A stretch of 33,891 nucleotides of DNA from Candidatus Nanoarchaeia archaeon (lineage in GTDB: Archaea > Nanobdellota > Nanobdellia > Pacearchaeales > GW2011-AR1): NCBI GenBank assembly GCA_035548435.1, contig DASZSY010000001.1, positions 1 through 33,891 of the forward strand, in the 5' to 3' direction. The translations under genes and the position numbers were made by a program. The notes beneath the pieces are model-generated. The model was not told the origin of the DNA. It searched no databases and saw only the letters and a list, made by a program, of their open reading frames with translations. Shown one piece after another: positions 16,617-32,539 of this stretch. Each line of letters begins with the position of its first letter. Position 1 is the first letter of the stretch.

Positions 16617-16660
16617 GCCACCTTAAACATTTAAAAACCCGTTTTAGCTCTGATTTACAA

Positions 16661-16697
16661 GGCCTCATAGTCTAGTGGCAAAACGACTCGTTTACAC
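16661..16697 (+). pseudogene. 5' half of host tRNA-Val(TAC) = attL
   Basis: GGCCTCATAGTCTAGTGGCAAAACGACTCGTTTACAC, identical to 29916-29952; TATA TTTAAAAA at 16630-16637. Confidence 0.93.
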
Positions 16698-16764
16698 ATA
16701 GTGTATCCTATAAGTTATCTTAAGAAATAGCAATGTTTTTATACTAATAGACTATAATATATAC

Positions 16765-18000
16765 ATGTATAAAGAGAGATATATAAAACGTAAACAAGCA
16801 CTATTATCAGACCTAAGTATTAATCCTATTAATCTTGAAGTAATCAACAAGTTTCTAACCTTTGAAGAGTATAAGCTAAAGAGAAAGCAAGGATTAACAG
16901 AGGTAGATGAAAGGTCTTACAAAACTCTGTATGGATATTCTGGCAGACTTAGAACCCTGAATCGTTGGTTTAACAATAAGCCTTGGGCTGAACTAACTAT
17001 TGAGGACATCAAGAAGCTTATAGATGATTTAGAAGATGGAAAAATTATTAATCAATATGGTAAAAGATACATGGACCGAAGTTTATACTACCAAATGCTT
17101 CAGGGGAAATTGTTTAGTTTAGTTGGGAAAAGTCACATTGCAAGAGAGATAATTGAGGAGTTCTCTATAAGAGGCAGAGAGTTTGGGAATGAGGTAAGAT
17201 ACATTGATGAAGAATCATTTAGAAAGATTGTTGATTGTGCTATAACTCCAGAACAGAAATGTTTGTTATGGTTGGCTTTTGATGTTGGAGAAAATATTAA
17301 TTCTTTGTTAGCAATTACAAAGGCAGATATAAGAAAACAAATTAATACAACCACCAATGAACCAGAATATCTTGTTATTCTTAGTAAAGACATACTGAAA
17401 AGAAGCAGAACACCAAGAAGCGAACTAACTAATTACAAAGAGACAGCAAGATACTTAGATATTGTTTTAGCAAATCTAAAACCAGCGCACAAAAGAACAG
17501 CTAACAAGTTTATGTCCAGCACCCATCTTTCACAGGTCCATGAAGATGATAAATTATTCAAGTTTGCTTTCAAATCAGCAGAAAAGTTTCTAAAGAGAGC
17601 AGTAGAACTGGCAGGAATAAGATGTTTACCAGCAGGACAAAGAGTAACTTGGAAAGACTTGAGAAGTAGTATGGCTTGTGATTTATTAAAGAAAGGATGG
17701 AGTAGAGACGAAGTTAATGCTAGGTTAGGACATCGTCCTTCTTCCAGAATAATTGATAGATACATCAATTATTTAGCCTTAGATAAAACAAAACCAAAGA
17801 AAATAGTCTATGAAGGAAACATACATAAATTAGAAATTGAATTGGAAAGACATAAAGAAATGAATAAGCTTTCAGCTTTAAGATTTGAGTCACTAAAGAG
17901 AGAGCAAGACCAACTCAAAGAATCATTTAGACTATTCATGGCTAATGCAAAAGTGGAGCTTAAGGGAATTGTTCAAGAGGTGGATGAATTATATCTCTAA
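16765..18000 (+). CDS. Tyrosine integrase (atypical active site)
   Basis: Adjacent to attL; WKDLRSSMACDLL..GWSRDEVNARLGHRPSSRIIDRY; box I reads DVGENINSLL. Confidence 0.85.
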   Translation: MYKERYIKRKQALLSDLSINPINLEVINKFLTFEEYKLKRKQGLTEVDERSYKTLYGYSGRLRTLNRWFNNKPWAELTIEDIKKLIDDLEDGKIINQYGKRYMDRSLYYQMLQGKLFSLVGKSHIAREIIEEFSIRGREFGNEVRYIDEESFRKIVDCAITPEQKCLLWLAFDVGENINSLLAITKADIRKQINTTTNEPEYLVILSKDILKRSRTPRSELTNYKETARYLDIVLANLKPAHKRTANKFMSSTHLSQVHEDDKLFKFAFKSAEKFLKRAVELAGIRCLPAGQRVTWKDLRSSMACDLLKKGWSRDEVNARLGHRPSSRIIDRYINYLALDKTKPKKIVYEGNIHKLEIELERHKEMNKLSALRFESLKREQDQLKESFRLFMANAKVELKGIVQEVDELYL

Positions 18001-18001
18001 T

Positions 18002-18184
18002 ATGAAAATAGATATTACACTAAGTTATAATGGAAAGAAGATGACTGAGAAGCAAAAGAAAATAGCATTTGACGCAACAAAGCAATTGATAAGTGTAATA
18101 GGAAAGGCATATGAAGATTCTATTACCAAGATAGACATTAAGCCAACAGATAAAAAGGTTTATTGTAAAATTGTGTTAAAATAA
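18002..18184 (+). CDS. Small hypothetical protein
   Basis: ATG 1 nt after the int stop (MKIDITLSY...). Confidence 0.5.
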   Translation: MKIDITLSYNGKKMTEKQKKIAFDATKQLISVIGKAYEDSITKIDIKPTDKKVYCKIVLK

Positions 18185-18192
18185 TATTGTTA

Positions 18193-18462
18193 TTAATAAT
18201 TTTCAAATAGCTTTAGAACTTCTTTTCCTCTAAGAGTAGTCTTCAATACGGCTCTGTTAGTCTTTGGAACTTTGCTTCTTGTTATAAGTTCAAGTTCTAT
18301 AAGTCTTGATAAGTGTATTCTTGTATTCAAAGCTCCCATTTCTAAATGGTCTTTTAGCCACATAACTCCAACATCTTTTTTGTTATCTATAGTCTTAAGA
18401 ATAACCAAATCTAATCCGTTGATGTAGGTTTTACTTCTTACGCCTTTCTCTCTTTGAACCAT
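18193..18462 (-). CDS. Winged-helix transcription regulator (MarR/ArsR-like)
   Basis: LDLVILKTI, WLKDHLEMGALNTRIHLSRLIELELITRSK, LKTTLRGKEVLK. Confidence 0.7.
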   Translation of the reverse strand: MVQREKGVRSKTYINGLDLVILKTIDNKKDVGVMWLKDHLEMGALNTRIHLSRLIELELITRSKVPKTNRAVLKTTLRGKEVLKLFENY

Positions 18463-18552
18463 GACATATGATATTGATTTGGTTATATAAATGTTTAGAT
18501 TATATGTTATAAAATAGTATTATATACTCAGTAGCATAAGTTTAAATATAAG

Positions 18553-18570
18553 TGACTACTGAATAGACAA
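18553..18570 (+). repeat. 18-bp repeat copy 1 (putative operator)
   Basis: TGACTACTGAATAGACAA, identical to 20981-20998, next to TTTAAATA at 18541-18548. Confidence 0.75.
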
Positions 18571-18587
18571 ATACACAATGTAGTACT

Positions 18588-18743
18588 ATGGACAATCAAT
18601 TCAGTATTGAAAAGAGAAAAGAGCTAATAAAGCTTAAGGTAGAGCGATTAATTTCAAAGATAGAAGAGTATTCAGCAATGAATCTGAAAGAAGATAATAA
18701 AGTTCCCTTAGTTTTGTCTAAACCTAATAGTGCTTCCCCTTGA
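18588..18743 (+). CDS. 51-aa small protein divergent from the wHTH gene
   Basis: MDNQFSIEKRKELIKLKVERLISKIEEY...; downstream of TATA at 18541; absent from the ORF track. Confidence 0.4.
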   Translation: MDNQFSIEKRKELIKLKVERLISKIEEYSAMNLKEDNKVPLVLSKPNSASP

Positions 18744-18908
18744 ATGGTCTTTCCAACCAACAACAGAATATCCTCTTTTCTCTAGGAGTTCTTGAATCTC
18801 AGTTGCACACTTTATAGACTTATATTCTGCTAACTCTCTTTTTGTTTTGCTTAACTTCGAAAACGGAATTGCAGAAGACTTAACACTTATTTTAATTGAA
18901 TACGTCAT
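18708..18908 (-). CDS. Small hypothetical protein
   Basis: 66-aa ORF overlapping the end of the Xer-like gene. Confidence 0.4.
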   Translation of the reverse strand: MTYSIKISVKSSAIPFSKLSKTKRELAEYKSIKCATEIQELLEKRGYSVVGWKDHSRGSTIRFRQN

Positions 18909-19461
18909 TTACAGTCTTCTTTTTGTTTTCTACTCCCATATGTTTGTATATTCCAGTTGATGCTAATGATTTATGTCTTAGAAGTTCTTGGACTTTTCCT
19001 AGGTCTCCTGTCTTATCCCAAATAATAGTTCCATATGAATGTCTAAATGTGTGTGGATGAACATTCTTTTTTATTTCAGCTTTCTTCGCATAGTATTTGA
19101 CAATCTGCCACACTCTTTGTTTTGTTAAAGGAATAATATGTTCATCATCTTGTTTATAGTTACACCATTCTTCTAAGAACTTGAATAATGAAGTAGGAAT
19201 TGGTTGGTCTGCTTCCATTCTGGTTTTTGTTATCTCTGCTCTGATTCTGATTGTCTTGGCTTTGAAATTAATATCTTTCTTTTTTATGTTGATGGCTTCA
19301 TTAACTCTCATTCCAGTATAATAAAGAAACTTTAGAATCATCTCATCTCTTGGAGATTCTACGAGGCTAAACATTTTATTTACTTCTTCTTCAGTCAAGT
19401 GTTCTTGTAATTTTCTTTCTTTCACTTTTCCTTTCTTTCTAGTGTGCTGTTGTTCTTCCAT
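18892..19461 (-). CDS. Small Xer-like tyrosine recombinase (catalytic domain only)
   Basis: LYYTGMRVNEA, ITKTR, HPHTFRHSYGT, LLRHKSLASTGIY: full R-K-H-R-H-Y set in 189 aa. Confidence 0.92.
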   Translation of the reverse strand: MEEQQHTRKKGKVKERKLQEHLTEEEVNKMFSLVESPRDEMILKFLYYTGMRVNEAINIKKKDINFKAKTIRIRAEITKTRMEADQPIPTSLFKFLEEWCNYKQDDEHIIPLTKQRVWQIVKYYAKKAEIKKNVHPHTFRHSYGTIIWDKTGDLGKVQELLRHKSLASTGIYKHMGVENKKKTVNDVFN

Positions 19462-19533
19462 TTTAATATTGATTATAGTAACGATACAATGTATTTAAAT
19501 TTTGGTCGTTTTATCGACGATAAATTAAAATCT

Positions 19534-19561
19534 ATTTTAACCTTTATTTAAAAGTTAAAAT
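19534..19561. other. dif/res-like 11-6-11 site
   Basis: ATTTTAACCTT-TATTTA-AAAGTTAAAAT, arms 10/11 complementary, about 70 bp upstream of the Xer-like gene. Confidence 0.5.
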
Positions 19562-19664
19562 GCAGTTATGAATAACATTCCTTAGTGTTTTGTGGTAAAA
19601 TTACATTCTTTATAGATGTTATAATATAGATGAAGAATAAATACTAGTGTTTGGATAATTAATT

Positions 19665-19961
19665 ATGACTGGCAAGAAAGGAATGCACAATATTGGAAGA
19701 CCTACTCTTTCAGATGACGAAAGAACAATCTATCAGCATAAAGCTTTCTATTTTCCACAAAGAAATAGATTAATCTGGCTCGAATTCTACAATTTAGCTT
19801 TACGAAAGTTCAGAGGAAAGAGAACATCTTCAAATGTTATTTCAATAGCAATAAGAAGTTTCATCTACAACTTTGTCAAAGAGAACACAGACAACGCAAC
19901 AACAAGAGAAGCTGTTGAAAGAAAGATTGCGAATGAGATAACTCCTTACATTAATAATTAA
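19665..19961 (+). CDS. Hypothetical protein, possibly RHH-like DNA binding
   Basis: GRPTLS, AFYFP strand, SNVISIAIRSFIYNFV helix. Confidence 0.5.
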   Translation: MTGKKGMHNIGRPTLSDDERTIYQHKAFYFPQRNRLIWLEFYNLALRKFRGKRTSSNVISIAIRSFIYNFVKENTDNATTREAVERKIANEITPYINN

Positions 19962-19966
19962 TTCTA

Positions 19967-20503
19967 ATGCAACAAGCACTTACACTTATCATATATAAGA
20001 AAACGCTAGTCCCAACAAAGCGACAGATAAAGCACCAATACAGAAGTGATTGGAAGCTTGTTGAGAAGCTAGATAATGCTTGGACTGAATCAAATTTAAA
20101 ATGCTTCGGACATGGAAAGATAGAGTGGGATTCTGAACTAATATATCTTATTCATCAAAGATATGGTGATGGAGAATATATGATATCAGCTTTCAGAAAG
20201 GGAAGAAGAGGATTATATTTATTTATGAAATTCATTTGTAATGCTTCAGGCTTCATGAGAAAGAAAAAGAAGCCTAAACTAAAGTTTGTTGGAATGAAGT
20301 TAAATGAAGAAACCAATGAGCTACAAGAACAATATGAAGAAGATGAAAGCAAATCAGGTTGTAATCCTTATCTTCGTTCTAACATTCCAACTTATGATGT
20401 TTGGAATGAGCATCTCACAATAAACGATGCAGAACAAAAGCACGAATCAAACTTAGTCGATATCAAAGAAAATAAAAATCCATCGGGCAATGACTTTTGG
20501 TAA
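19967..20503 (+). CDS. Hypothetical protein
   Basis: 178-aa ORF, 5 nt after the previous gene. Confidence 0.6.
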   Translation: MQQALTLIIYKKTLVPTKRQIKHQYRSDWKLVEKLDNAWTESNLKCFGHGKIEWDSELIYLIHQRYGDGEYMISAFRKGRRGLYLFMKFICNASGFMRKKKKPKLKFVGMKLNEETNELQEQYEEDESKSGCNPYLRSNIPTYDVWNEHLTINDAEQKHESNLVDIKENKNPSGNDFW

Positions 20504-20516
20504 TATATCTTAAGAC

Positions 20517-20804
20517 TTATTCAACAGAATATCCTTTGAAAGAAAAGAAATCTCTAGGAGAAGTAATAACACCTTTATGGAGTATGACTGGTTCCCAAAC
20601 TGATAGCTCTGCTGGGTCAAAGAATTCCATTTCTTGCTTAGATAGTATAGTGGGTCTTAAGAAAGTCTTTCTAACAAGTCCAAAGCAAATACATTCGACC
20701 TTTCGTTCTTGGCCATTGTCAAAGCCGAAAAGAGCATATATTTTGTTCTTTGTTCTAATGCTTTTTATCTTCATTACTTTGAAATAATAATTTTCGTCTA
20801 TCAT
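20517..20804 (-). CDS. Hypothetical protein
   Basis: ATG start; more protein-like than the antisense ORF 20497-20787. Confidence 0.4.
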   Translation of the reverse strand: MIDENYYFKVMKIKSIRTKNKIYALFGFDNGQERKVECICFGLVRKTFLRPTILSKQEMEFFDPAELSVWEPVILHKGVITSPRDFFSFKGYSVE

Positions 20805-20980
20805 ATAATATTATATCAGTGCAAGTATTTAATGGTTCTTTGATAGACTTAATGATATGGAAAACAATATCTCTTTAGATATAGAATAGGACAACCAAAC
20901 TAAAATAAAATTCCGTATCTAGTAAAAAAATAACACATATATGCATAAACGTCTAGTTTTCTATCACTATATTATAGTTA

Positions 20981-20998
20981 TGACTACTGAATAGACAA
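20981..20998 (+). repeat. 18-bp repeat copy 2 (putative operator)
   Basis: TGACTACTGAATAGACAA immediately before TTTAAATA (21001-21008) of the replication operon. Confidence 0.75.
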
Positions 20999-21029
20999 TA
21001 TTTAAATACTAGTATAGGTTTAGTATATC

Positions 21030-21296
21030 ATGGAACAAGATACTACCACCTCAACACCACAGCTGATTTCACCAACAATTGAACAGCCAAAAATCAAAGA
21101 TGTTAGATTTGTAATAAGAATGCCTAAGATATATACTGATGGCCTAGAAAATTTAAAGAGCAACGCAAGATTACAATCCATTCTTGGAGAAAAGATATCT
21201 AGGAATGCACTAATCAAAAGAGCAGTGCAAGAGTTAGTTACAAAGTATAGTCAGTCGAATCAAGTGAAAGGAGGCAATATTTCCACAAATCCTTAG
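21030..21296 (+). CDS. Ribbon-helix-helix (CopG/Arc-like) protein
   Basis: VRFVIRMPKIYTDGLENLK...ISRNALIKRAVQELVTKY. Confidence 0.65.
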   Translation: MEQDTTTSTPQLISPTIEQPKIKDVRFVIRMPKIYTDGLENLKSNARLQSILGEKISRNALIKRAVQELVTKYSQSNQVKGGNISTNP

Positions 21297-21338
21297 TTAT
21301 AATCATTTGATTTGAACTGATTTGAGAAACAAAATTCT

Positions 21339-21761
21339 ATGAGTGACTTATGGGAAGCTAAAAAGATGACACAAGAAGAAGTGTCAGCAATGAGAGAGAA
21401 AGCTAAGGCAGATTGGATAAGACTATTTGGAAAGAGAGACTGGAATAAGTATTGTAAAGAAACAAGTCAAAAATCTGTTAAAGATTATGATAAGAACGGG
21501 AAAGAAAGCGCTCAATGGGGCTTTGAACAAGAAATGACTCTAAAAACATATTTTGAAACAGATGACAGAGTATATATCCAAATAAAGAATCGTTGGCCTA
21601 ATAATCCTGACAAAGTAATGCATGTTAATGGAACCATCTCTGAATGGACCATGGAACAAGACTACATTATGTTCAAAGATGATAAAACCATTCAGCCTAT
21701 GAAGATAAGAAAAGCAGATATCGCCTTCATTAACTATTCTAGAAAGGAGGCTCCGAACTAA
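21339..21761 (+). CDS. Hypothetical protein
   Basis: 140-aa ORF; ends with an AGGAGG SD for the next gene. Confidence 0.6.
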   Translation: MSDLWEAKKMTQEEVSAMREKAKADWIRLFGKRDWNKYCKETSQKSVKDYDKNGKESAQWGFEQEMTLKTYFETDDRVYIQIKNRWPNNPDKVMHVNGTISEWTMEQDYIMFKDDKTIQPMKIRKADIAFINYSRKEAPN

Positions 21762-21763
21762 TT

Positions 21764-24301
21764 ATGGACCACAAGGACTACTTGAGCCGACATGTGGGAA
21801 AACGTTTCAAAAGAGGAGCTACAAAAGAAAACATTGGTTCTACTAAGTGGGAATTGGATTATCAAGATTCCAAATACTCTGAAGACATCAATCAGATTGA
21901 GATAGCTGATAATGAAATTGTTATAGAGTTTGATGAAACAGCCAAAGACGGAAGTGATAAGGTATCAACAATCGCAGAGAGAACAAATTGGATATATCAC
22001 ACAATGAATATGCTGGATACTTTCAACATAAAGTATTATGTATTTGACCACAAAGGAAAATGTCAGCATATTCATATCTTTTCTGAAAGAGACTTAACAC
22101 AGGGCGAAAAAGAAAGAGTGGCCAAATCTTTTGTAAAAGCTGAAGCCGAACCATTCCTTGACACAAGTCTGTTCACTAATGCTCATTTAATCAATGTTCC
22201 ATTTTCAAAACATTGGAGAACAGGAGAAATGAAGAAGTTATTACATGAATATGGAGAGCATCCAATTAGAGACAAAGATATTCCTCCAAAAATTACTTCT
22301 GATAGCGATATGACAACGATTTCTGTCTCTACTGGGCTTACAAAGAAAATAGTTTCAGCAATAAAAATCACAGATATTGCAAAAGAACATGGATTAAAAC
22401 AATCTACAACACAGAAGAATCAATTTCTGTGTCCTTTTCATAAGGATAAAAACCCATCATTAGACTTAAATGATGAAAAAGGATTTTTTCATTGCTTTGG
22501 ATGTCAAGCTAGTGGAAACATAATTGACCTTGTTTCAAGATTGGATAAGATAACACCAGAAGAAGCAAAAGAAAAGTTGATGGGTAAGGCTAAGTTGCTC
22601 GAAATAAGACCAAAAGTTCAATTACCTCAGAGCAAACTAATATCTGATTTCGCAAAAGAGATTCTACCTTTTTTGAGAGACGGAAACGAATTGTTTTACA
22701 ACACCCAAGTTAAATCAATAGTTCAGATAAGAAATAAAGAATTTCATATAGTTACTGCTGGTGAATTTATTACTATTGTCGAGAACTATATTACTCCTGT
22801 TATTCATGAAAAAAAGAAAGTGAAGGTTATGGAGAATGATGTTCTCGTAGAGAAAGACGCAATAATAGAGAAAAGAAAATCTATGACTCGTGAACTATCA
22901 AGCACTTTATTACAAAGTGATATCTTGATGAACGGATTAAGACCAATAAAGCAGATATTTACAATCCCTATTCCAATTTGGTTCAATGGAGAACTTACTT
23001 TTGTAAAGAAAGGATATGATGAAAGATTCTCTTCATGGCTTTCTGAAGATTCACCAGATATATCAAATCCAAATATGAGTTTGAAAGAAGCAAAAGAAAT
23101 AATCAATTATATCTATAAAGAATTTGCATTTAAAACACAACAAGATTTGATTAATGCTATTGCAGGATTACTTACACCATACACAAGAGGGCTTATGAGT
23201 AGCTTTTCTGTAAGAACTCCGTTTTGGTTTTATATGGGGAACAGAGAACGTGTTGGAAAAGACTATTGTGCAGATATCACTGGAATAGTCTATGAAGGGT
23301 ATGCAATTCAAGAGACGCCAATAAGCACGGGGGAAAGCAACAGCAATTCAGAGGAATTAAGAAAAAAAATTGTATCGGCGCTACTTTCAGGCAGAAAAAG
23401 ATTACACTTTGCAAATAATAAGGGATATCTCAATAATGCCGCTCTTGAAATGGTATTGACAGCTCCAAAAGTTTCAGATAGACTACTTGGAAAGAACGTT
23501 GAAGTTGCGTTAGATAACCTTATAGATTACTCTGCTTCTGGAAATGTTGGAATTGGATTCACTCCCGACTTAATGAATAGGAGTTTGTTTGTTAATCTCT
23601 TTTTAGACATTGAAAATGCAAATGCAAGAAATTTTGAAAATCCCAACTTACACGGATGGGTTTTAGAAAACAGAAACAAGGTATTGAGTGCATTATATGC
23701 CTTTATTAGGAATTGGATTGAAAAAGACAGACCGAATGGTAGCGTTCCTTTTGCGAGTTATCCAGAATGGGCAAAGATTGTTGGTGGAATCATGGAAACT
23801 GCTGAATACGAAAATCCATGTAAGGTTCATGAACAGGTTCTGGCAATTGGTGGAGATATCGAAACAGGAGATATGAAAGAATTATTTGAACGATGCTATA
23901 ATGAACATCCAAACATCTGGATTGACAAAAATGACATTAAGAATGTAATTATAAATGCCCAAATGAACGAAGGCAGTTCAATGTTTAGTAATATTGATTT
24001 CGCAAATAGAGCTGACCAAGTGAAATTTGGAAGCAAAATAGTAAGGTTTCAAGGAAGAATTTTGTCTGATATACGTTTAGATAGTGATGGAAACACAAGA
24101 ACAGCACGACAAAAATATAAATTTGAAAAAATAACAAACAAAAATGGTAATCTTGGTAATCTTGGTAATCTAAACCCTTGTGGACAATTAAATGATAAAC
24201 AAAACAATATAATATATAGTAATAGCCAAAAGATTGCCAAAGATTACCAGATTACCAATCCTCTTTCTTTGGAATCATTTAATGGAAACGGAGGATATTA
24301 G
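21764..24301 (+). CDS. Replication protein: AEP-like primase + CHC2 zinc finger + degenerate P-loop helicase-like domain
   Basis: IVIEFDE and DHKGKCQHIHIF (AEP-like motifs I/II); CPFHKDKNPSL...FHCFGCQASGNIIDLV (CHC2); GNRERVGKD and LHFANN (Walker A/B-like). Confidence 0.75.
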   Translation: MDHKDYLSRHVGKRFKRGATKENIGSTKWELDYQDSKYSEDINQIEIADNEIVIEFDETAKDGSDKVSTIAERTNWIYHTMNMLDTFNIKYYVFDHKGKCQHIHIFSERDLTQGEKERVAKSFVKAEAEPFLDTSLFTNAHLINVPFSKHWRTGEMKKLLHEYGEHPIRDKDIPPKITSDSDMTTISVSTGLTKKIVSAIKITDIAKEHGLKQSTTQKNQFLCPFHKDKNPSLDLNDEKGFFHCFGCQASGNIIDLVSRLDKITPEEAKEKLMGKAKLLEIRPKVQLPQSKLISDFAKEILPFLRDGNELFYNTQVKSIVQIRNKEFHIVTAGEFITIVENYITPVIHEKKKVKVMENDVLVEKDAIIEKRKSMTRELSSTLLQSDILMNGLRPIKQIFTIPIPIWFNGELTFVKKGYDERFSSWLSEDSPDISNPNMSLKEAKEIINYIYKEFAFKTQQDLINAIAGLLTPYTRGLMSSFSVRTPFWFYMGNRERVGKDYCADITGIVYEGYAIQETPISTGESNSNSEELRKKIVSALLSGRKRLHFANNKGYLNNAALEMVLTAPKVSDRLLGKNVEVALDNLIDYSASGNVGIGFTPDLMNRSLFVNLFLDIENANARNFENPNLHGWVLENRNKVLSALYAFIRNWIEKDRPNGSVPFASYPEWAKIVGGIMETAEYENPCKVHEQVLAIGGDIETGDMKELFERCYNEHPNIWIDKNDIKNVIINAQMNEGSSMFSNIDFANRADQVKFGSKIVRFQGRILSDIRLDSDGNTRTARQKYKFEKITNKNGNLGNLGNLNPCGQLNDKQNNIIYSNSQKIAKDYQITNPLSLESFNGNGGY
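24145..24257. repeat. Iteron-like origin: 3 direct TGGTAATCT, AT-rich spacer, 3 inverted copies
   Basis: TGGTAATCT x3 at 24145-24171; AGATTGCCA at 24231, AGATTACCA at 24241 and 24249. Confidence 0.75.
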
Positions 24302-24327
24302 TTTAATTTAATTAAACTATCTTAAAA

Positions 24328-24558: not shown

Positions 24559-24622
24559 AACTTGGTGACAGAAACTTTGATTTTTGGTCAAAATATATAA
24601 AGAAGAGTTTGGCTTATTTAAT

Positions 24623-25597
24623 ATGTCTATAACAAAACACAAACAGATTCTTCTTGTGTGTAACTATTGCGGACACAAGCAGTATGTTGAAAAAGAACCT
24701 AAGAAATGCCCTCGTTGTCATAACAAATATGGAAATGAACCAGTTTATAAAAAAGTAAAAAAGGAAGTTGGTAATTTTATTGGAAGAAATAAAAATTTCA
24801 TTATGTTCTTTCTTGGAATATTTTTGTTTATGTCAATTGCCTATGCAACCACTATAAGTGATACGACTTCAACTTTTAATGGTAACGTTAATTATGATAG
24901 CAATCTCACTTTAAGCTCAAGCACAATATCTTTAACAAATCCATATGCTACAAACGCTTTGTTCATTGACCAAAATGCAAATGGTGGAACATCTACATCT
25001 ACTGGTGGTGCTTTAAGATTGGACATGACTGGTAGCGATGGTGCTGGTCTTCTTATTTATTCAAATAATGGAGCTAGTGCTTCTGGTAGGTTGCTAAATA
25101 TTAGAGCTGATAATTCTTCTTTCAATCAAGCCGCATTTCATATAGATTATGACGGAACAGCTAACGCCGCAGAAGTTTCTTATGTAAACAACGATAGTTC
25201 AGGTCAAGCTCTAAATGTTGTTAGTTACAATGAATTAGATAGCCCACTTGGAGTAAACGGACAGACAACTGGAAAAGGAGTTGTAAAAATAGTTCATCTT
25301 CAACCATCAAGTTCTGATGCTAATGCCGCCGCAATTTCAATAGATTTGCAGGGAGCAACTACAGCTTCAAAAGGAATATTCATTGATACTACAACAGGAA
25401 ATACTACTGGGCACTTGCTGGATTTAAGAAACGGAGGTAGCCAAAGATTCGTTGTAACAAGTGAAGGTGTAATGCAGTTATTAGCGAATAGAACTGCTAT
25501 AACTTGCGGAACATCACAAGCTGGTTATATCTATTATGATGGAACTCTCTCAAAACACTACGGATGCAATGGCACAACATGGAATGCTCTATACTAA
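24623..25597 (+). CDS. Zn-ribbon + signal anchor + phage hyaluronate-lyase (HylP/Hyaluronidase_1)-like beta-helix protein
   Basis: STGGALRLDMTGSDGAGLLIYSN, FNQAAFHIDYDGTANA, GKGVVKIVH, DANAAAISID, KGIFIDTTTGNTTGHLLDLRN parallel the HylP1 sequence as I recall it; CNYC..CPRC and a hydrophobic segment at the N-terminus. Confidence 0.8.
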   Translation: MSITKHKQILLVCNYCGHKQYVEKEPKKCPRCHNKYGNEPVYKKVKKEVGNFIGRNKNFIMFFLGIFLFMSIAYATTISDTTSTFNGNVNYDSNLTLSSSTISLTNPYATNALFIDQNANGGTSTSTGGALRLDMTGSDGAGLLIYSNNGASASGRLLNIRADNSSFNQAAFHIDYDGTANAAEVSYVNNDSSGQALNVVSYNELDSPLGVNGQTTGKGVVKIVHLQPSSSDANAAAISIDLQGATTASKGIFIDTTTGNTTGHLLDLRNGGSQRFVVTSEGVMQLLANRTAITCGTSQAGYIYYDGTLSKHYGCNGTTWNALY

Positions 25598-26534
25598 AGA
25601 TAAAAAACGTAAGAGCATTTGGAAAATATTATTAATAATTATAGCACTTAGTATTTTCCTTTTTTTGATATCTAACGCATTTGCTCTGTCTATTGAAAAT
25701 CAAACAAGAACTTACTCATCTTTGACAAACTCAACTATTAGATTTGAACAGAATACTACTCTCGCTCAACTTGAAGTAACCAATAATAGAACGAATATAC
25801 ATAATCTAACCACAAATGGTTCTATCTTTAGTAACATTAACGCAAGTTATCCAGCATACATTAGCTTCTATGGCCTAAATTCGTCTTCTACTTATTATTC
25901 AAACAATACTAAGTGTGGATTTACATCTAAGACTGATAATAGTGGAAATATGAACTGCACAATTGGTGTTGGTCAATATGTTATCTTTTACAACTCAACA
26001 ACGCCACCAAATGCAACAATAATTTCACCAAACGGAATTGTCACAAATCAAAATATTAATATTCAATTACATACTGAAAGTTCAGCGTCTTATTGCATGA
26101 TTAATATCTCGCGAGGTTCAGTAATTGATTTCTCGAATGTCTTAGTTCCTAGTTGTGATAGTGTTAGTCTTACTTTGCCACAGGACGGCACTTACGCTAT
26201 TAATTTATTGGTCAATGATTCAGTCGGAGATGCTCAATATATAAGCCAAAACTTTACTTTGCAAATGTTAGTTATTCCATCAACTCAAAGTGGTGGTGGC
26301 TCATCATCAAGTTCGTCTACTAGTTCAACTTTACAAACTTTTATGGTGAATAGACAAAACGGATGGGAATTTATGACTGATAAGAATTTGAAATATTATC
26401 AAATAGATGGGTTGTCTAATAAGAAAGTTGAGAAAGAGCTGTTAATAACTCATCTTGATAATGAGACAAAGCAAATCACTCTTTCGTGTGATGGGTTTAT
26501 GTGTGAGAATGTCAATTTCAAACAAAAAAGTTGA
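25584..26534 (+). CDS. Secreted, heavily N-glycosylation-prone surface protein (N-terminal part of a probable frameshifted gene)
   Basis: Signal peptide ending NAFA; 16 N-x-S/T sequons counted; GGGSSSSS linker. Confidence 0.75.
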   Translation: MLYTKDKKRKSIWKILLIIIALSIFLFLISNAFALSIENQTRTYSSLTNSTIRFEQNTTLAQLEVTNNRTNIHNLTTNGSIFSNINASYPAYISFYGLNSSSTYYSNNTKCGFTSKTDNSGNMNCTIGVGQYVIFYNSTTPPNATIISPNGIVTNQNINIQLHTESSASYCMINISRGSVIDFSNVLVPSCDSVSLTLPQDGTYAINLLVNDSVGDAQYISQNFTLQMLVIPSTQSGGGSSSSSSTSSTLQTFMVNRQNGWEFMTDKNLKYYQIDGLSNKKVEKELLITHLDNETKQITLSCDGFMCENVNFKQKS

Positions 26535-26893
26535 CACTTAATTCAACTCAAAATAGTATTAGAACAGCATTTGAAATAAAATTAACAGGTATTTCTGAAG
26601 ATAGTCAAGAATTTACAATATATGCTACTGACCAATTTGGAATAAAAAAGCAAATTTTGGTTACTATTGAAGCTGATGGAATTATAAATAAAGGTGTTTC
26701 TTCAATTACGAAGCTTGTAAAATTCGGAGAGTTCTCTGGCTTAAAAATTCCTTATATTATCATCTTTTTCTTAGTATTTTTTGGGATTTTCAATTTAATG
26801 AATTATATTGCTCTAAGAAAGTATCAATATAAAGAAATTGTATCTGTGGTGATTGGAATAATTGCAGGATTTGGTGTTTTACTATATCTATAA
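26531..26893 (+). CDS. Membrane-anchor part (two C-terminal TM helices) of the probable frameshifted surface protein
   Basis: Only a TTG start overlapping the previous stop after an A6 run; continues the beta-rich pattern, then 2 TM segments. Confidence 0.6.
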   Translation: MTLNSTQNSIRTAFEIKLTGISEDSQEFTIYATDQFGIKKQILVTIEADGIINKGVSSITKLVKFGEFSGLKIPYIIIFFLVFFGIFNLMNYIALRKYQYKEIVSVVIGIIAGFGVLLYL

Positions 26894-26925
26894 GTTTCCA
26901 TCTTCTTTTGGCTCTATTTTTTTTG

Positions 26926-27165
26926 CTATGCTACGAATACCAAAGCAATTGTGGCTATTGCTAATATTATTGTTGAACCAGCAAGAATCCATGTAGCCTT
27001 TACAAGTGAATTTGTTTTTTTACTACTCTCGTATTGAAGATACCAAAGAAGCAAATCTTTCTCATTTTCATTGTAACTTCCAACGTGTCCCCAAGCTGGA
27101 CCTGACTTAATTGCTTCTCTGCCCTTGTTGAAATCTAACAACCACTTTTCAAATTCTTTATCCAT
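26926..27165 (-). CDS. Small protein with C-terminal TM helix
   Basis: LVKATWILAGSTIILAIATIALVFVA. Confidence 0.6.
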   Translation of the reverse strand: MDKEFEKWLLDFNKGREAIKSGPAWGHVGSYNENEKDLLLWYLQYESSKKTNSLVKATWILAGSTIILAIATIALVFVA

Positions 27166-27703
27166 GATGTTCTGTATGTTCAGGCTTTTGTTCTTTCTCC
27201 TTTTTTCCTCTGATTAAATTTATTATTAATAATATTATTTCGCCTTTAAAGAACAAGAAGCTCAAAATCTCAATTCCAAAAGCAATGTTGAGACCAATAG
27301 ATATCGTGTATCTGTTTGTTATCTTGTTGTAAATTTTGTTATAGTTATTGACTATCTGCTCAAACTTCTGGTCCAAAGAAGTTATTTGTATCTGTGTTAG
27401 ATTATAGTATCCTTTTATTTCTACAAAGTCTTGTTTCGTGATGTTTTCATTTACTAAGCGATTATAATTATTGTTACATTGAATAAGCATTGACGTAGTT
27501 TGATTCAAACTTGCATTTAGAGTGCTTATTGTTATGTCTTTTTGTGATATTGTATCCATATAGGGTCTACACTGAGTTTCAGAAAGCGTAGCAGCCATAA
27601 TTGAGAAAGCTCCAACCATTACAATGCAGATAACACCAAAACCTAGAACACCAAAAACAATCTTTACTGGGTCATCTTCCATTAATTTAGGGGGTGAAAC
27701 CAA
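27158..27703 (-). CDS. Two-TM membrane protein with coiled-coil ectodomain
   Basis: TM at both ends, heptad-like middle with several N-x-S/T sequons. Confidence 0.65.
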   Translation of the reverse strand: MVSPPKLMEDDPVKIVFGVLGFGVICIVMVGAFSIMAATLSETQCRPYMDTISQKDITISTLNASLNQTTSMLIQCNNNYNRLVNENITKQDFVEIKGYYNLTQIQITSLDQKFEQIVNNYNKIYNKITNRYTISIGLNIAFGIEILSFLFFKGEIILLIINLIRGKKEKEQKPEHTEHHG

Positions 27704-27767
27704 TATTTAAAATATGTGGCTTAAAGAGACCGAAAGGTTAATATTGCATTATTTCTTGGTGGTTTGA

Positions 27768-28733
27768 ATGAACATGAAAGGCCAAACTTTACAAGACCTA
27801 CATAAACTACTCGCGTCTTCTATTAGAATACCCCATTCATTCCTTAGAAGAGCAAGAGGTTTCATCAGTGAGTTGAAATTCAAAGAAAAATGTGTGAGTG
27901 ATAAAATCAGATACTTGGATGGTGGCTGGATGTTCTTTAAGGGAGGAAGACTAGCTGAACAAAAACAAGCAGTTTATACAACCACTACGTTTGATAATCC
28001 TGATAAATATGCTGAATTTTACGAAAAGCTATCTGTTTGTCCACTTATCAAAAAAATGTTTTTCTTTAAGATTAACCCTCGAAAACAATGGAAATCTATA
28101 AAGATAAAGGCGAATAATCATGACGAACTTTCTTTACCCGAACCTAGCTTTGAGGTATATGAATTTGTGCAAAATAAGTTTGTTAAATCTAATATAACAA
28201 GCTTTTTGGAATTCTTTCCTACAATAAAACCTGCGTTGTTTTATAGAATTGATACCAAAGATGCAAGTCTACTTGATTATCTTAATGAATTTTCTGACAC
28301 TGCTTTGGATGAACTATATTGCACAAGGTTTATTGTAGACTATTTGATGAAAGGCAGAGATTTGAGTTATGGCATGGACTTTGACGGAATTATAGTTGAA
28401 AAAGGAAAGTATTATGTCGTTGAAACAAAGGAGAAAGACCCAGGGCCAACTTTGAAGGATAAATTACCTAAATCTGAATGGTTCTTTGGTTGGGATACTC
28501 TAAGAATGCTATGGTATCTTTATTTAATCAAAACAACTGACATTAATTGTTATAGTGCAATTCTTGAAATAAATAATCAGAAAGAAAGAAAACCCGTGGC
28601 TTGGAAAAGATGTGAACTAATGGAGCTTTGTCGCTCAATTAATTATAGTTCTGCTATTACTGGTGGTGTTGGAATGGGTCCATCAGCTGGGTCAACAACC
28701 ATTGCACCATATTTAGTCTTTAAAGAATTTTAA
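27768..28733 (+). CDS. Putative PD-(D/E)xK restriction endonuclease
   Basis: DFDGIIVEKGKYYVVETKEK motif; overlaps the C5-MTase stop. Confidence 0.65.
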   Translation: MNMKGQTLQDLHKLLASSIRIPHSFLRRARGFISELKFKEKCVSDKIRYLDGGWMFFKGGRLAEQKQAVYTTTTFDNPDKYAEFYEKLSVCPLIKKMFFFKINPRKQWKSIKIKANNHDELSLPEPSFEVYEFVQNKFVKSNITSFLEFFPTIKPALFYRIDTKDASLLDYLNEFSDTALDELYCTRFIVDYLMKGRDLSYGMDFDGIIVEKGKYYVVETKEKDPGPTLKDKLPKSEWFFGWDTLRMLWYLYLIKTTDINCYSAILEINNQKERKPVAWKRCELMELCRSINYSSAITGGVGMGPSAGSTTIAPYLVFKEF

Positions 28734-29692
28734 AGATTCTTTTTAATTTCTTCTGCAACGGCTTTAGCAAGAAGACATGGAACTGCGTTTCCTATCTGCA
28801 TATAAATCTCTTTTTTTGAGCCAACCCATTTATAATCGATTGGAAATGTTTGAATTGCCGCTGCTTCTTCTGGAGTAAGCATTCTAACTTCGTCTTCTGC
28901 ATATTTCACAAGAGCATCAGCACCATCCTTCCAATATCTTGCAGATATGGTATACGAAGGCTCATTTAGTTTCAGGTATTGTGCACCAAATCCTTTTCCG
29001 TTTTCTGCGTTAATTTTCTTTCTACGATTGAATCCATCAATCATTTTTGGAGTATGAAAGAATTTTTTATCAACTTTATCTTTTGGAATCAAAACAGATG
29101 ACACTGGGACATAACTATTAGTGTGGGTCGGTTCTGGAAACTTTATTTGCTTATTTGTTTTTGTTCCTATAAATACTACTCTTTTTCTTTTTTGAGGAAC
29201 ACCATACTCTGCAGCATGAAGCTTTCTATACTCCACTTCATATCCAATTTTCTTGAACTCTGCTAAAATTATTTTGTGAACAAGTTCACCATTTGCAGTT
29301 TTCATTGTTAATATGCCTGGAACATTTTCCATAACAAAGAATTTAGGCTTTAGACCATTTACAATTCTGACAAATTCCATGAATAAAGAATTTCTTGGGT
29401 CTTTCGTATCTCTTCTACCAGCCATACTAAATCCTTGACAAGGTGGTCCTCCCGCGACTATATCTACTTCTTTATTACCAATTGCTTCTTTTATTTCGTC
29501 TACACTAACTTTTGTAATATCTTTGCAAATAGATTTATGGTCGTTTTTTTCAAATGTTTGACAAAATACAGGTATATGGTCTACTCCAAGAAGAACATCA
29601 AACCCAGCCATTTTGAAACCAGTGCTAAGCCCTCCAGCACCACAAAATAAGTCGACTACCGTTGGTTTTCTTTCTTGTTTCACCTTATTCAC
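28730..29692 (-). CDS. DNA (cytosine-5)-methyltransferase
   Basis: DLFCGAGG, GGPPCQGFS, MENVPG, QKRKRV, QIGNAVP. Confidence 0.96.
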   Translation of the reverse strand: MNKVKQERKPTVVDLFCGAGGLSTGFKMAGFDVLLGVDHIPVFCQTFEKNDHKSICKDITKVSVDEIKEAIGNKEVDIVAGGPPCQGFSMAGRRDTKDPRNSLFMEFVRIVNGLKPKFFVMENVPGILTMKTANGELVHKIILAEFKKIGYEVEYRKLHAAEYGVPQKRKRVVFIGTKTNKQIKFPEPTHTNSYVPVSSVLIPKDKVDKKFFHTPKMIDGFNRRKKINAENGKGFGAQYLKLNEPSYTISARYWKDGADALVKYAEDEVRMLTPEEAAAIQTFPIDYKWVGSKKEIYMQIGNAVPCLLAKAVAEEIKKNL

Positions 29693-29915
29693 CAGTTTTT
29701 ATTATAATTTGTATTCATTTATGTTATATAAACTTAGATATTGTATAATCTATAGTTATTCCGTCAATTGACAGCAATAAAATGCACATGTTAAACATCA
29801 TTGGTAGTCGTAAAATAGCTCATTTGCGACAGCAATAAAGGCTTATTTTGAGGCATTTTTAGGTAACTTTTGACAAGAACAAGGTTTAAAACATATTATT
29901 TGTTAAGAAAAACAA

Positions 29916-29986
29916 GGCCTCATAGTCTAGTGGCAAAACGACTCGTTTACACCGAGTAGTCGGGAGTTCGATTCTCTCTGGGGCCA
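29916..29986 (+). tRNA. tRNA-Val(TAC), intact, inside the element
   Basis: Cloverleaf: GGCCTCA/TGGGGCC acceptor, ACTCG-TTTACAC-CGAGT anticodon arm, GGGAG-TTCGATT-CTCTC T arm; TATA TTTAAAAC at 29885-29892. Confidence 0.95.
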
Positions 29987-29990
29987 TCTC

Positions 29991-30773
29991 ATGAGTTATA
30001 TTATGTACGTGGACGAGTGTTATGAGAAAAGTTCTAATTGTTCAATTATGGCAGGTTTCATAATTCCTTTGACAAAGTGGAGTGTTCTTAACAAAGAGAT
30101 AAAAGACTTGAAGGAAAAATATTTCAAGAATGAATATATGAATCTTAAAGATATTAGAAGAAATAAGTATGATGAGAATCAGTATTGGAACTCTCTAACT
30201 TCAGAACAGAAAGAAGAATTCAATAAAGAATTTTATGAAATCATATCAAGAAAGGATTATACAATACTAGCAGGAATTATCAATAAAGAGGGTATGGAAG
30301 ACAAGTCCAAAGAGTTACAATTTTACCTTTCTTACAGCTTTATTTTGCAAAGGTTTGAGTATTTTTTAGATGAAAATGACTCTCAAGGTATTATTATAAT
30401 GGATAGTGCAGAGGCTAGTAAAGAAATTAATGAATTATATGATAAACATAAGAGGTTTCTGAGAGAAGGTGTGCCAACTAAAAGAAAAGACTTAACGTTG
30501 AAAGTAGGCGGTAATGAATTTAGTTTCAAAGATTACGAAAGGAGAAAAATAACCAGAGTGTGTGAAAATCTACTATTTCTGAATGATGACGATACTAATA
30601 TGCTACAAATAGTGGATATGATTTCTTCTGCCATGTTTGCTAAATTTAATCGTAAAATTGATGTTTGGTTTAACAAGATAAAGTCAAATATAAGAGCAAG
30701 AAAGAGTGATGGTTTGATGTTAGGTTATGGTTTAAAGTTCTTCCCAGAGCTTCCTAAAGACATTAGTATCTAG
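29991..30773 (+). CDS. DUF3800-like (RNase H-fold) protein
   Basis: N-terminal MYVDEC, IIIMD, C-terminal LQIVDMIS match the D-E...D...QxxD pattern. Confidence 0.7.
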   Translation: MSYIMYVDECYEKSSNCSIMAGFIIPLTKWSVLNKEIKDLKEKYFKNEYMNLKDIRRNKYDENQYWNSLTSEQKEEFNKEFYEIISRKDYTILAGIINKEGMEDKSKELQFYLSYSFILQRFEYFLDENDSQGIIIMDSAEASKEINELYDKHKRFLREGVPTKRKDLTLKVGGNEFSFKDYERRKITRVCENLLFLNDDDTNMLQIVDMISSAMFAKFNRKIDVWFNKIKSNIRARKSDGLMLGYGLKFFPELPKDISI

Positions 30774-30857
30774 TTTATGCTCTATGATGTAGGATTCAAG
30801 CCAAAACACATGGTTTAAATAAGACTATCGCTAAAAGTAACTTAAAGGATAGAATCG

Positions 30858-30898
30858 TTTACACCGAGTAGTCGGGAGTTCGATTCTCTCTGGGGCCA
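30858..30898 (+). pseudogene. 3' half of host tRNA-Val(TAC) = attR
   Basis: 30855-30899 is identical to 29943-29987 (45 bp); followed by a T-rich terminator-like tract. Confidence 0.93.
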
Positions 30899-30930
30899 TT
30901 CTTTTTATATTCCAAAAAGCTAATTAACTG

Positions 30931-32458: not shown

Positions 32459-32468
32459 TTTTAAGAAA

Positions 32469-32539
32469 TGCAGTCACCGGGAATCGGACCCGGACTTACT
32501 GATTGGCAACCAGTCGTTCTACCACTAAACTATGACTGC
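32469..32539 (-). tRNA. tRNA-Gly(GCC)
   Basis: GCAGTCA...ACTGG-TTGCCAA-TCAGT...CCGGG-TCCGATT-CCCGG-TGACTGC-A. Confidence 0.92.

Follow-up and report, generated by a model that had tools for sequence, protein, structure and literature searches.

The segment at 16698-30857 of the DNA studied here is probably one integrated mobile element (we put the probability at about 0.7), with an attachment site (attP) that contains only the anticodon loop of tRNA-Val and with a complete tRNA-Val of its own. The strategy, "break it and replace it", is common to related elements and unlike the usual repair of the target gene. As a model it holds for the integrase family concerned: besides the window, two integrated relatives covered in full and a third in attP form show the sequence architecture. 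The window is the whole stretch analysed, 33,891 nt long (DASZSY010000001.1, positions 1 to 33,891), from a metagenome-type assembly of a DPANN archaeon.

Table 1. Features of the window around and within the candidate element.
Feature	Position	Strand	Remarks
TATA-like box TTTAAAA of the chromosomal tRNA-Val gene	16630..16636	+	24 nt 5' of the 5' half; sequence reading
Host tRNA-Val(TAC) 5' half, displaced	16661..16697	+	tRNA positions 1-38; attL side
armL and integrase promoter region (TTTTTATAC)	16698..16764	+	inverted repeat of 30825-30857 in the first 20-33 nt
Tyrosine recombinase (integrase), 411 aa	16765..18000	+	Pfam PF00589 E = 1.1e-6; PHROG 1
Second tyrosine recombinase, XerA-like, 189 aa	18892..19461	-	catalytic domain only; PF00589 E = 2e-32
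Primase-helicase (replication module)	21764..24301	+	CHC2 zinc finger and D5/DUF5906-like C-terminal part
HylP/hyaluronidase-like (tail-fibre-like) protein	24584..25597	+	cargo; PF07212 E = 1e-30; PHROG 2332
Restriction-modification cassette	27768..29692		321-aa partner and C5 cytosine methyltransferase
Restriction-modification 321-aa partner	27768-28733	+	
C5 cytosine methyltransferase	28730-29692	-	PF00145 E = 5e-74
TATA-like box TTTAAAA of the internal tRNA gene	29885..29891	+	24 nt upstream
Complete tRNA-Val(TAC), intron-less, inside the element	29916..29986	+	probable cargo/replacement copy; ARAGORN
DUF3800 protein gene	29991..30773	+	between cargo tRNA and right arm; PF12686 E = 2e-13
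armR (far arm)	30825..30857	+	inverted-repeat partner of armL
Host tRNA-Val(TAC) 3' half, displaced	30858..30898	+	loop and tRNA positions 39-73; attR side

As the first-pass annotation had described, tRNA-Val is present as a 5' half, a full gene and a 3' half (Table 1), the full gene being the single complete tRNA-Val(TAC) that ARAGORN finds in the window. The loop sequence TTTACAC occurs three times, starting at 16691 (to 16697), 29946 (to 29952) and 30858 (to 30864). Joining 16661-16697 to 30865-30898 yields a tRNA-Val(TAC) by ARAGORN and exactly the sequence of the internal gene, so the annotated identity of internal and host genes stands; it covers 71 nt together with 4 nt upstream (ACAA) and 1 nt downstream. 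In the window this identity appears as two exact direct repeats, one of 41 bp (16657-16697 = 29912-29952; the 4 upstream nucleotides and tRNA positions 1-38) and one of 45 bp (29943-29987 = 30855-30899; TCG, loop, 3' half and 1 nt). The TATA-like boxes that had been reported at equal spacing before the host and internal copies are also in place. Because the 12.6-14.4 kb window flank is syntenic with the region upstream of the 5' half in related loci (L005, L008, L029 and L060-62), the locus at 16630-16697 is the native host locus.

The roughly 14.2 kb between the halves would make up a plasmid-like element carrying an integrase, a primase-helicase, a restriction-modification cassette and cargo genes. 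The integrase gene adjoins the 5' half, 67 nt from the core, with an intact reading frame that lies outside the repeat, and tblastn found no integrase fragments elsewhere in the window. Residues R218, K297-D-L-R300, H323 and Y333 are invariant, and R218, K297/R300, H323 and Y333 presumably serve in catalysis. An AF2 model (pLDDT 82) has Foldseek matches to XerA, IntI, lambda Int and Cre and aligns over about 330 columns to XerA, Cre and the lambda Int core, which predicts a two-domain recombinase closest to XerA, IntI, the lambda Int core and Cre. The protein, a divergent tyrosine integrase, belongs to a large family in Woese-/Pacearchaeota-like DPANN archaea (654 homologues, those with names coming from Pace-/Nano-/Woesearchaeota MAGs). 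The second recombinase matches NCBIfam XerA_Arch with 147.7 bits over profile positions 87-261 only. Genes homologous to the primase-helicase are present in L060/61, the restriction-modification pair recurs with Vsr in unrelated DPANN contexts, and DUF3800 homologues are generic island cargo with no linkage to tRNA-Val.

Two inverted arms, TAACTTAAAGGATAGAATCG (30838-30857) and ATAGTGTATCCTATAAGTTA (16698-16717), abut copies of TTTACAC at the ends of the segment. Recomputing their match gave the annotated scores of 15/20 and 13/14 for the outer block around the 7-nt anticodon loop, with 15/21 over one further position and 23/33 when the reverse complement of armR is extended along armL; symmetry is lacking at the six positions adjoining the core (2/6). 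When segments of the window were paired at random in fixed register, scores of at least 15/20 came up at a frequency of 1.75e-5 and 0 of 400,000 pairs reached 23/33, so that the chance of the arm match is about 2e-5 or less. Arms beside the integrase share a family consensus, N7-ATCC...AAATAGCAA...TTTATATAC. Compared with 25 family arms, armR is closest to its own partner whether 21 or 33 nt are scored (23/33, next best 20). In each of the four cases (the window, L029, L074 and L036) the integrase-proximal arm of the element itself is the best of the 25 matches to its far arm, jointly with another in L029.

The break after TTTACAC is invariant in 16 distinct loci (the window and 15 further), where a 5' half ending in ...CTCG-TTTACAC is followed by an arm and the integrase gene; the loci represent more than 10 different host tRNA-Val sequences. 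The search for relatives with the half/full/half pattern that the first-pass annotation proposed led to two fully covered integrated elements, L029 and L074. In L029, the host halves (GGACCTA.../...TAGGTCCA) flank 10,837 bp, join into a valid tRNA-Val and share only TTTACAC, and arms inverted at 20/21 positions abut the loops. This element carries another tRNA-Val(TAC), which stops 58 nt short of the right core. It agrees with the host gene at 51/71 positions, has compensatory changes in the acceptor stem and contains a 35-nt intron. L074 has the same design over 10,461 bp (arms inverted at 18/21, halves sharing 7 nt only), and its cargo tRNA-Val(TAC) is intron-less and identical to the host gene at 52/71 positions. 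A third relative, L036, reads cargo tRNA-Val with intron, 12 nt, arm, TTTACAC, arm and integrase; this is the joined attP junction lacking a tRNA half that had been predicted for the window. The arms around TTTACAC agree at 16/21 positions there (19/25 by hand), compared with 20/21 in L029, 18/21 in L074 and 15/21 in the window. The cargo gene of L029, L036 and L074 corresponds in relative position to the internal gene of the window, and in L029 and L074 it sits close inside the far arm. Furthermore, L033 is 89.9% identical to L006/L030/L031 over 1392 bp beginning exactly at G-TTTACAC; left of this point, the tRNA 5' half stands in one and an arm-like sequence in the other. None of the five elements of the window's orientation with a visible far side or attP (L029, L074, L036, L033 and L018) has a 5' half in its attP.

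These observations suggest how a break-and-replace element would work. A Xer/Cre-like recombinase would use a simple, nearly symmetric attP of inverted arms around the 7-bp asymmetric overlap TTTACAC, which is identical to the anticodon loop of tRNA-Val(UAC), while the chromosomal anticodon stem would provide the inverted half-sites of attB. Strand exchange, with cleavage probably at the loop edges, would insert the element and divide the gene into a 3' half and a 5' half that keeps the host promoter, one loop copy each. As the attP lacks a tRNA half, the chromosomal gene would not be regenerated; the element would instead supply a complete tRNA-Val(UAC) with its own TATA box near its far end, and precise excision would rebuild the host gene. 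The cargo tRNA would then be expressed and functional and the halves non-functional, and the host may come to depend on the element, as in the addiction idea of the first-pass annotation.

The reading of one element with a symmetric attP and a replacement tRNA under its own promoter is supported by L029, L074 and L036, which are independent relatives. In the window itself the internal gene is identical to the host gene, the DUF3800 gene separates it from the right end, and the arms keep 2/6 symmetry next to the core, so that the structure formally equals a tandem pair of independent islands at a single tRNA gene, the first flanked by the 41-bp and the second by the 45-bp repeat. Island A, about 13.2 kb long (16698-29952), would be a 5'-half integrator whose attP carried the promoter and tRNA 5' half, displacing the host 5' half and rebuilding the gene; the full gene would then be the regenerated target and not cargo. 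Island B (29988-30857) would be a decayed remnant with DUF3800 and no integrase, left by a related, oppositely inserted parent whose attP carried the tRNA 3' half, and the arms would be alike only through the common family of both islands. We regard this as unlikely. The exact 41-bp and 45-bp repeats overrun the tRNA by 4 nt on its upstream and 1 nt on its downstream side, which is the identity that direct repeats of two islands would give, while the cargo of L029 and L074 differs from the host gene at 19-20 positions and that of the window at 0. The window arms are weaker than in the clear cases (15/21 versus 18-20/21), and the cargo gene lies 871 nt from the far arm instead of the 36-78 nt of the relatives. 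A cargo copy that has no intron and keeps TTTACAC intact would also offer the integrase a target, which counts against a single element. Relatives in the opposite orientation, with the integrase beside the 3' half, do exist (L020, L021, L023/24, L025 and L078), and armR matches their arms at 14/21, nearly the 15/21 of its own partner. The L023 element is bounded by identical 3' halves, its attP carrying a tRNA segment with the target regenerated, and on its far side stand arrays of arm-TTTACAC-3' half remnants without integrase genes that resemble the right end of the window. Archaeal 5'-half integration is also known (pTN3, PMC8371274; Caldiarchaeum, PMC3293823; CalSub-E1, PMC6563490). Against two islands stand the ranking of armR with its own partner and the 0/5 count for a 5' half in attP, which would make the window element the sole known member of its type; moreover, an outward-reading cargo tRNA near the far end is the layout of the single-element relatives.

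A very improbable alternative is that the halves form a functional split tRNA gene of the Nanoarchaeum type, trans-spliced through the paired arms, with armL as trailer of the 5' half transcript and armR as leader of the 3' half transcript, so that the host gene stays functional. As with the split tRNAs of Nanoarchaeum equitans, the host is a DPANN archaeon, the break is in the anticodon loop, and the trailer is complementary to the leader (13/14 in the window, 20/21 in L029). For L029, RNAcofold pairs the two halves in trans at the acceptor and anticodon stems, followed by an internal loop of 7x7 nt and a helix of 21 bp. Worked out by hand, this geometry has the spacing of a bulge-helix-bulge (4+3 nt per strand), and a cut behind the second nucleotide of the bulge would give back UUUACAC at 37/38. 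In L074, the host also has a gene for a tRNA-splicing endonuclease near the site. Unlike in N. equitans, however, the halves overlap by 7-10 nt and no canonical bulge-helix-bulge is predicted. That motif was rejected for the annealed halves: the central helix would be UUUA/UUUA with 2/4 Watson-Crick pairs, as opposed to the perfect UUUA/UAAA of the cargo introns, and in the window the arms are unpaired for 6 nt next to the loop, with a cofold lacking the anticodon stem in trans. No promoter was identified for the 3' half. Nor is an intact gene for the same tRNA missing: all three loci covered in full (the window, L029 and L074) contain a complete tRNA-Val(TAC), which makes the halves dispensable, and L036 has one beside its attP. 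Least probable of all is a mis-join of contigs at the 41/45-bp tRNA repeats. The assembly is of the metagenome type, and repeats of 41-45 bp break 31-mer graphs, so the Logan unitigs of run SRR12170511, which end at 16686 and begin at 30870, are neutral on misassembly. The repeats are, however, shorter than normal reads, and the order of half, element, cargo and half was assembled independently in L029 and L074, which come from other samples, have no long repeat and differ between cargo and host sequences.

A break-and-replace element shares with classical tRNA-targeting elements of the anticodon-loop crossover type (Campbell 1992/2003, the Williams 2002 sublocation class and SSV1 Int, reviewed in PMC8371274) the tyrosine recombinase, its gene beside the att site, a tRNA gene as target and a 7-bp overlap equal to the anticodon loop with the stem as inverted core sites. 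The attP of classical elements contains the 3' part of the tRNA, and the gene is regenerated from the host promoter (PMC8371274), whereas in L029, L074 and L036 the inverted arms of the attP, which are specific to the element, enclose only the loop and 0-7 nucleotides of the stem; the target gene is left in two parts, and the element brings a complete tRNA gene of its own. The 7 nt shared in L029 and L074 differ from the 41/45 bp of the window, which are equally readable as cargo against host halves. The known 5'-half integrators, namely the pTN3-like elements of Thermococcus (Cossu 2017, as cited in PMC8371274), the Caldiarchaeum tRNA-Thr element (Sugahara 2012, PMC3293823) and CalSub-E1 (PMC6563490), similarly have a displaced 5' fragment upstream and an intact gene downstream whose promoter must come from the element, and the 41-bp repeat of the window, absent in L029 and L074, formally fits them. 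Yet pTN3 encodes an SSV-type integrase whose gene contains the att site and is split when the element integrates, whereas the window integrase gene is intact. In L029 and L074 the intact tRNA gene, moreover, is no host/element recombinant: it differs from the host gene, and behind it come an arm and the 3' half of the host tRNA.

The attP also resembles the sites of loxP/Cre, dif/Xer and archaeal XerA, where inverted half-sites flank a short asymmetric spacer that sets orientation. A spacer of 6-8 bp between inverted half-sites is the substrate pattern of XerA, IntI, the lambda Int core and Cre, and XerA, IntI and Cre have the folds closest to the modelled integrase. The occurrence of the family in both orientations relative to the tRNA is expected if the spacer alone sets direction. 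Cre and Xer, however, resolve dimers or act on identical sites, whereas the target of the window family is a tRNA gene, into which it integrates a replicon although the half-sites there bear no relation to the arms of the element.

The first-pass annotation makes no mention of an intron in the crossover sequence of cargo genes. Two relatives (L029 and L036) have canonical cargo introns at 37/38, exactly in the integrase crossover sequence, which by hand form the canonical hBHBh' motif with a 4-bp central helix. Such an intron interrupts the 7-bp overlap and therefore should stop the cargo gene from serving as a target. This position accords with the hypothesis of Randau and Soll that tRNA introns protect against integration, discussed in PMC3293823 and PMC4390854, and an element-borne intron was proposed by Sugahara et al. 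to block further invasion (PMC3293823).

Integration into tRNA genes is the commonest route by which islands, plasmids and viruses enter prokaryotic chromosomes, and the textbook rule is that the element carries the missing tRNA segment and thereby repairs the gene that it cuts. The element in the window carries an integrase of a widespread, undescribed DPANN family that appears to break this rule. Instead of the textbook repair, the family attP (the joined element ends) consists of inverted arms around the 7-nt anticodon loop alone; the chromosomal gene stays in halves, and a whole tRNA gene travels along with the element.

The half/full/half arrangement of tRNA-Val reported by the first-pass annotation was borne out in the window. 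ARAGORN calls one complete tRNA-Val(TAC) (29916-29986), and two exact repeats relate it to the outer halves: one of 41 bp (16657-16697 and 29912-29952), comprising 4 nt of upstream sequence and tRNA positions 1-38, and one of 45 bp (29943-29987 and 30855-30899), comprising TCG, the loop, the 3′ half and one further nucleotide, with an overlap of TCGTTTACAC between them. When joined, the outer halves are identical to the internal gene and are likewise called as tRNA-Val(TAC) by ARAGORN. The arms abutting the outer copies of the loop, TTTACAC, are inverted at 15/20 positions, at 13/14 in the outer block and at 23/33 when extended; among random pairs of window segments, 15/20 arises at a frequency of 1.75e-5 and 23/33 in none of 400,000 trials. 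The annotated TATA boxes at equal spacing were also present, as TTTAAAA precedes the 5′ half by 24 nt and the internal gene by the same distance, and this element-borne tRNA-Val with its own TATA box is the sole intact copy visible at the locus. Synteny between the left flank and the sequence preceding the tRNA-Val 5′ half of several related contigs places the 5′ half at its native chromosomal locus.

A tRNA-Gly(GCC) gene neighbours tRNA-Val(TAC) in many of these genomes, with varying side and strand: it is downstream and convergent in the window (32468-32540, minus strand), upstream and divergent in three related loci (L006, 9146-9219; L030; L031) and upstream on the same strand in two others (L034 and L035), which suggests rearrangements around the integration site.

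Homologues of the integrase are numerous (n = 654 at E ≤ 1e-5; best matches 60-72% identical), and the named ones come from MAGs of Pace-, Nano- and Woesearchaeota. Among loci drawn from species genomes, metagenomes and exact-protein look-ups, 16 distinct ones share the order of a tRNA-Val(TAC) 5′ half ending ...CTCG-TTTACAC, an arm of one of a few recurrent types and the integrase gene. The host halves of these loci comprise more than 10 different sequences and thus represent independent host lineages in which the break point is invariant. The integrase lies beside a reverse-complemented 3′ half, again broken at the loop, in five further loci (L020, L021, L023/24, L025 and L078/79), where the element is therefore inverted. 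More distant integrase homologues (44-48% identical) adjoin the 3′ ends of other tRNAs. One family member with a 61% identical integrase (L026, 2455-2540) adjoins a tRNA 3′ half whose loop reads TGTATAA on the integrase strand, compared with GTGTAAA, which suggests that the target specificity can shift to a different tRNA. The elements of the closest integrases (P0005, P0006 and P0022) exceed the 10-kb flank limit, placing their far ends beyond view. Exact-protein look-ups with the window integrase and the DUF3800 protein matched no record, and scans of IMG/VR viral contigs with the integrase and with a 24-sequence alignment found no relatives, the family being unrepresented among the predicted viruses there.

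Relatives with half/full/half patterns were sought, and two loci show both ends of the element. In L029, host halves GGACCTA...CCTCG-TTTACAC and TTTACAC-CGAGG...TAGGTCCA flank 10,837 bp, share only the loop and join into a valid tRNA-Val; its arms abut the loops, are inverted at 20/21 positions and include a second conserved block. Its cargo is a complete tRNA-Val(TAC) (Rfam, ARAGORN) with a 35-nt intron at 37/38, ending 58 nt before the right core. This gene is identical to the host gene at only 51/71 positions, with compensatory changes in the acceptor stem, and is therefore an independent gene and not a recombinant. The second locus, L074, has the same design over 10,461 bp, with arms inverted at 18/21 positions (about 30/39 by hand count) and an intron-less cargo tRNA-Val(TAC) that is identical to the host gene at 52/71 positions and ends 79 nt before the right core. 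The cargo gene of L029 matches the host 5′ half of another locus, L035, at 28/30 positions, and that of L074 matches the host 5′ half of L029 at 27/30; this likeness to chromosomal tRNA-Val genes of other lineages suggests capture from or exchange with host genes. In L074 (6481-6546), as in L075-L077, the 14 nt with which the host tRNA-Val begins, GGCCCCATAAGCTA, are present twice: once at the normal TATA distance and again 66 nt on, where the second copy opens the actual 5′ half. This amounts to a small duplication or insertion within that displaced half.

The symmetric attP without a tRNA half, predicted by the first-pass annotation, is realized at the family level in a 2.4-kb contig (L036), where a cargo tRNA-Val(TAC) interrupted by a 42-nt intron is followed after 12 nt by an arm, TTTACAC, a second arm and the integrase. 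This junction is the attP predicted from circularized L029 or L074. Non-tRNA sequence also stands to the left of TTTACAC in L033 and L018, and L033 is 89.9% identical over 1392 bp, beginning exactly at G-TTTACAC, to L006, L030 and L031, which, unlike L033, carry a tRNA 5′ half at that position.

Whether the 14-kb structure in the window is itself one such element is less certain, and we favour a single element with a probability of roughly 0.7. From the host 5′ half, the window runs through an arm, the integrase, further genes, an outward-reading cargo tRNA and a second arm to the host 3′ half, as do L029 and L074, and it shares its arm type with L074 and L018. The best match of its far arm is its own integrase-proximal arm (15/21 and 23/33, the next best among 24 other family arms reaching 14 and 20). 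Unlike L029 and L074, the window has an internal gene identical to the host halves, together with 4 nt upstream, a DUF3800 gene between the internal tRNA and the far arm, mirroring at only 2/6 of the core-adjacent arm positions, and an overall arm similarity just slightly above the between-element background. The identical internal gene fits equally well with two tandem islands, one of 13.2 kb whose attP includes a 5′ half and, behind it, a remnant of 0.9 kb. The right end of the window indeed resembles the integrase-less arrays of arm, TTTACAC and 3′ half that build up in opposite-orientation relatives, whose flanking 3′ halves are identical (L023). However, none of the five members whose far side or attP is visible has a 5′ half in attP, and we consider the tandem arrangement unlikely, though a serious competitor. 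A tblastn search around the right arm for another integrase copy, or pieces of one, found none. As the cargo gene is intron-less and identical to attB (the intact host site), what separates the two readings is solely the choice of pairs that the integrase makes among the three TTTACAC copies. Misassembly at the 41- and 45-bp repeats, raised at the outset as a possible refutation, is unlikely because the same order was assembled independently in relatives (L029 and L074) without a long repeat. Look-ups of the two flanking host proteins returned only short Logan unitigs ending at the repeats, with neither an empty site nor a circle among them.

The arrays on the far side of the opposite-orientation elements contain 2-4 units of arm, TTTACAC and tRNA-Val 3′ half (L023, 18950-19448, and L024, 10250-10900, both on the minus strand), with differing 3′ half sequences and without integrase genes. 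Although L023 and L024 share 99.7% identity over 10 kb, their arrays are different, as though the core had served as a point of module exchange.

XerA, integron integrase, lambda Int and Cre bind inverted half-sites around a 6-8-bp spacer, the asymmetry of which sets orientation. The predicted structure of the window integrase (pLDDT 82) is nearest to XerA, integron integrase, the core and catalytic domains of lambda Int, and Cre; a PDB sequence search with the integrase gave no match. Residues 350-410 form a long single C-terminal helix of about 60 residues, predicted at moderate confidence and absent from the Xer/Cre structures otherwise resembled, which could be an oligomerization element. 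The family attP matches the Xer/Cre pattern through the inverted arms around TTTACAC, and attB through the anticodon stem. Both orientations relative to the tRNA occur, as would be expected if the 7-bp spacer alone decided direction. An attP without a tRNA half means that integration leaves the chromosomal gene split, and because the two halves need no compatibility, the element can enter hosts with differing tRNA-Val genes. Host decoding of GUA/GUG would thereby come to depend on a mobile gene, which may drive tRNA gene turnover. The addiction effect suggested by the first-pass annotation is a reasonable but speculative corollary that requires the genome to have no other tRNA-Val(UAC) gene.

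The cargo introns at 37/38 (L029, 13595-13700, 35 nt; L036, 175-287, 42 nt) cut the crossover sequence as TTTACA|C. By hand analysis, their bulge-helix-bulge is canonical, its central helix being 4 bp long (UUUA/UAAA). As the intron splits the crossover sequence, the cargo copy should be unusable as an integrase target, and from its sequence it appears protected from integration. This agrees with the intron protection against integration discussed by Sugahara et al. (PMC3293823), and the two cargo copies provide a concrete test case for that old idea.

Classical tRNA integrators cross over in the anticodon loop (reviewed in PMC8371274), and in this the window family resembles them. Integration that displaces the 5′ half is known and rare, as in pTN3, the Caldiarchaeum tRNA-Thr and CalSub-E1, in all of which a tRNA segment carried by attP restores the target (PMC8371274, PMC3293823, PMC6563490). 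The present family differs from these in its symmetric attP without a tRNA half and its complete replacement gene, sometimes intron-protected. In the open-access literature we found no described element that disrupts a tRNA gene while carrying a replacement, and no such symmetric-attP design.

Split tRNA genes were discovered in the same superphylum, DPANN, and displaced halves with complementary flanks look like raw material for them. That the halves are themselves trans-spliced into functional tRNA-Val is, in our estimate, very improbable. Trailer and leader are complementary, and in RNAcofold the L029 halves form a 21-bp helix separated from the anticodon stem by a 7x7 internal loop, the spacing of a bulge-helix-bulge; however, the central helix of the annealed halves would have two Watson-Crick pairs only, the window arms are unpaired beside the loop, and every fully covered case (window, L029 and L074) has a full tRNA-Val gene. 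With no canonical bulge-helix-bulge and a full gene present, we rejected trans-splicing as the main explanation. A distinctly speculative extension is that the elements are a natural generator of disrupted tRNA genes, a source of split genes and anticodon-loop introns. In the halves, exactly 7 nt on each strand separate the anticodon stem from the terminal-inverted-repeat helix. Were this so, integration would make halves whose complementary trailer and leader are the terminal inverted repeats, a broad-specificity DPANN splicing endonuclease could trans-splice them, and internal deletion of the insertion would yield a hairpin intron at 37/38. This integrase family would then be linked directly to the origin of both split tRNA genes and anticodon-loop introns, and intron-bearing cargo copies would be the element's own immunized target. 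A tRNA-splicing endonuclease gene (PF01974; L074, 5629-6153, minus strand) lies about 0.4 kb from the split tRNA-Val, beside tRNA-Gln, which is probably a coincidence, though one that bears on trans-splicing.

Genes between the tRNA-Val halves in the window
Feature	Position	Strand	Remark
Tyrosine recombinase (integrase), 411 aa	16765-18000		Starts 67 nt past the 5′ half
Short XerA-like tyrosine recombinase, 189 aa	18892-19461	-	Catalytic domain only; XerA profile positions 87-261
Primase-helicase	21764-24301
HylP-like protein	24584-25597
Restriction-modification pair	27768-29692		C5 methyltransferase last
DUF3800 gene	29991-30773		Past the internal tRNA, before the far arm

The G+C content of the element (about 33%) shows no difference from its flanks. 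The pair of a 321-aa protein and a C5 methyltransferase recurs at 67-72% identity after a Vsr gene (window 26531-29692; L068-L073), and the 120-aa ORF at the position expected for Vsr in the window (26531-26893) has no Pfam match. In the contexts of the partner-protein homologues, homologous pairs occur in unrelated DPANN settings without linkage to tRNA-Val, and the pair looks like a mobile restriction-modification cassette acquired by the element. Contexts of DUF3800 homologues also revealed no linkage to tRNA-Val; this gene and the restriction-modification pair are generic island cargo and are uninformative on one element versus two. Other elements of the family encode a serine resolvase in place of the second, XerA-like recombinase of the window.
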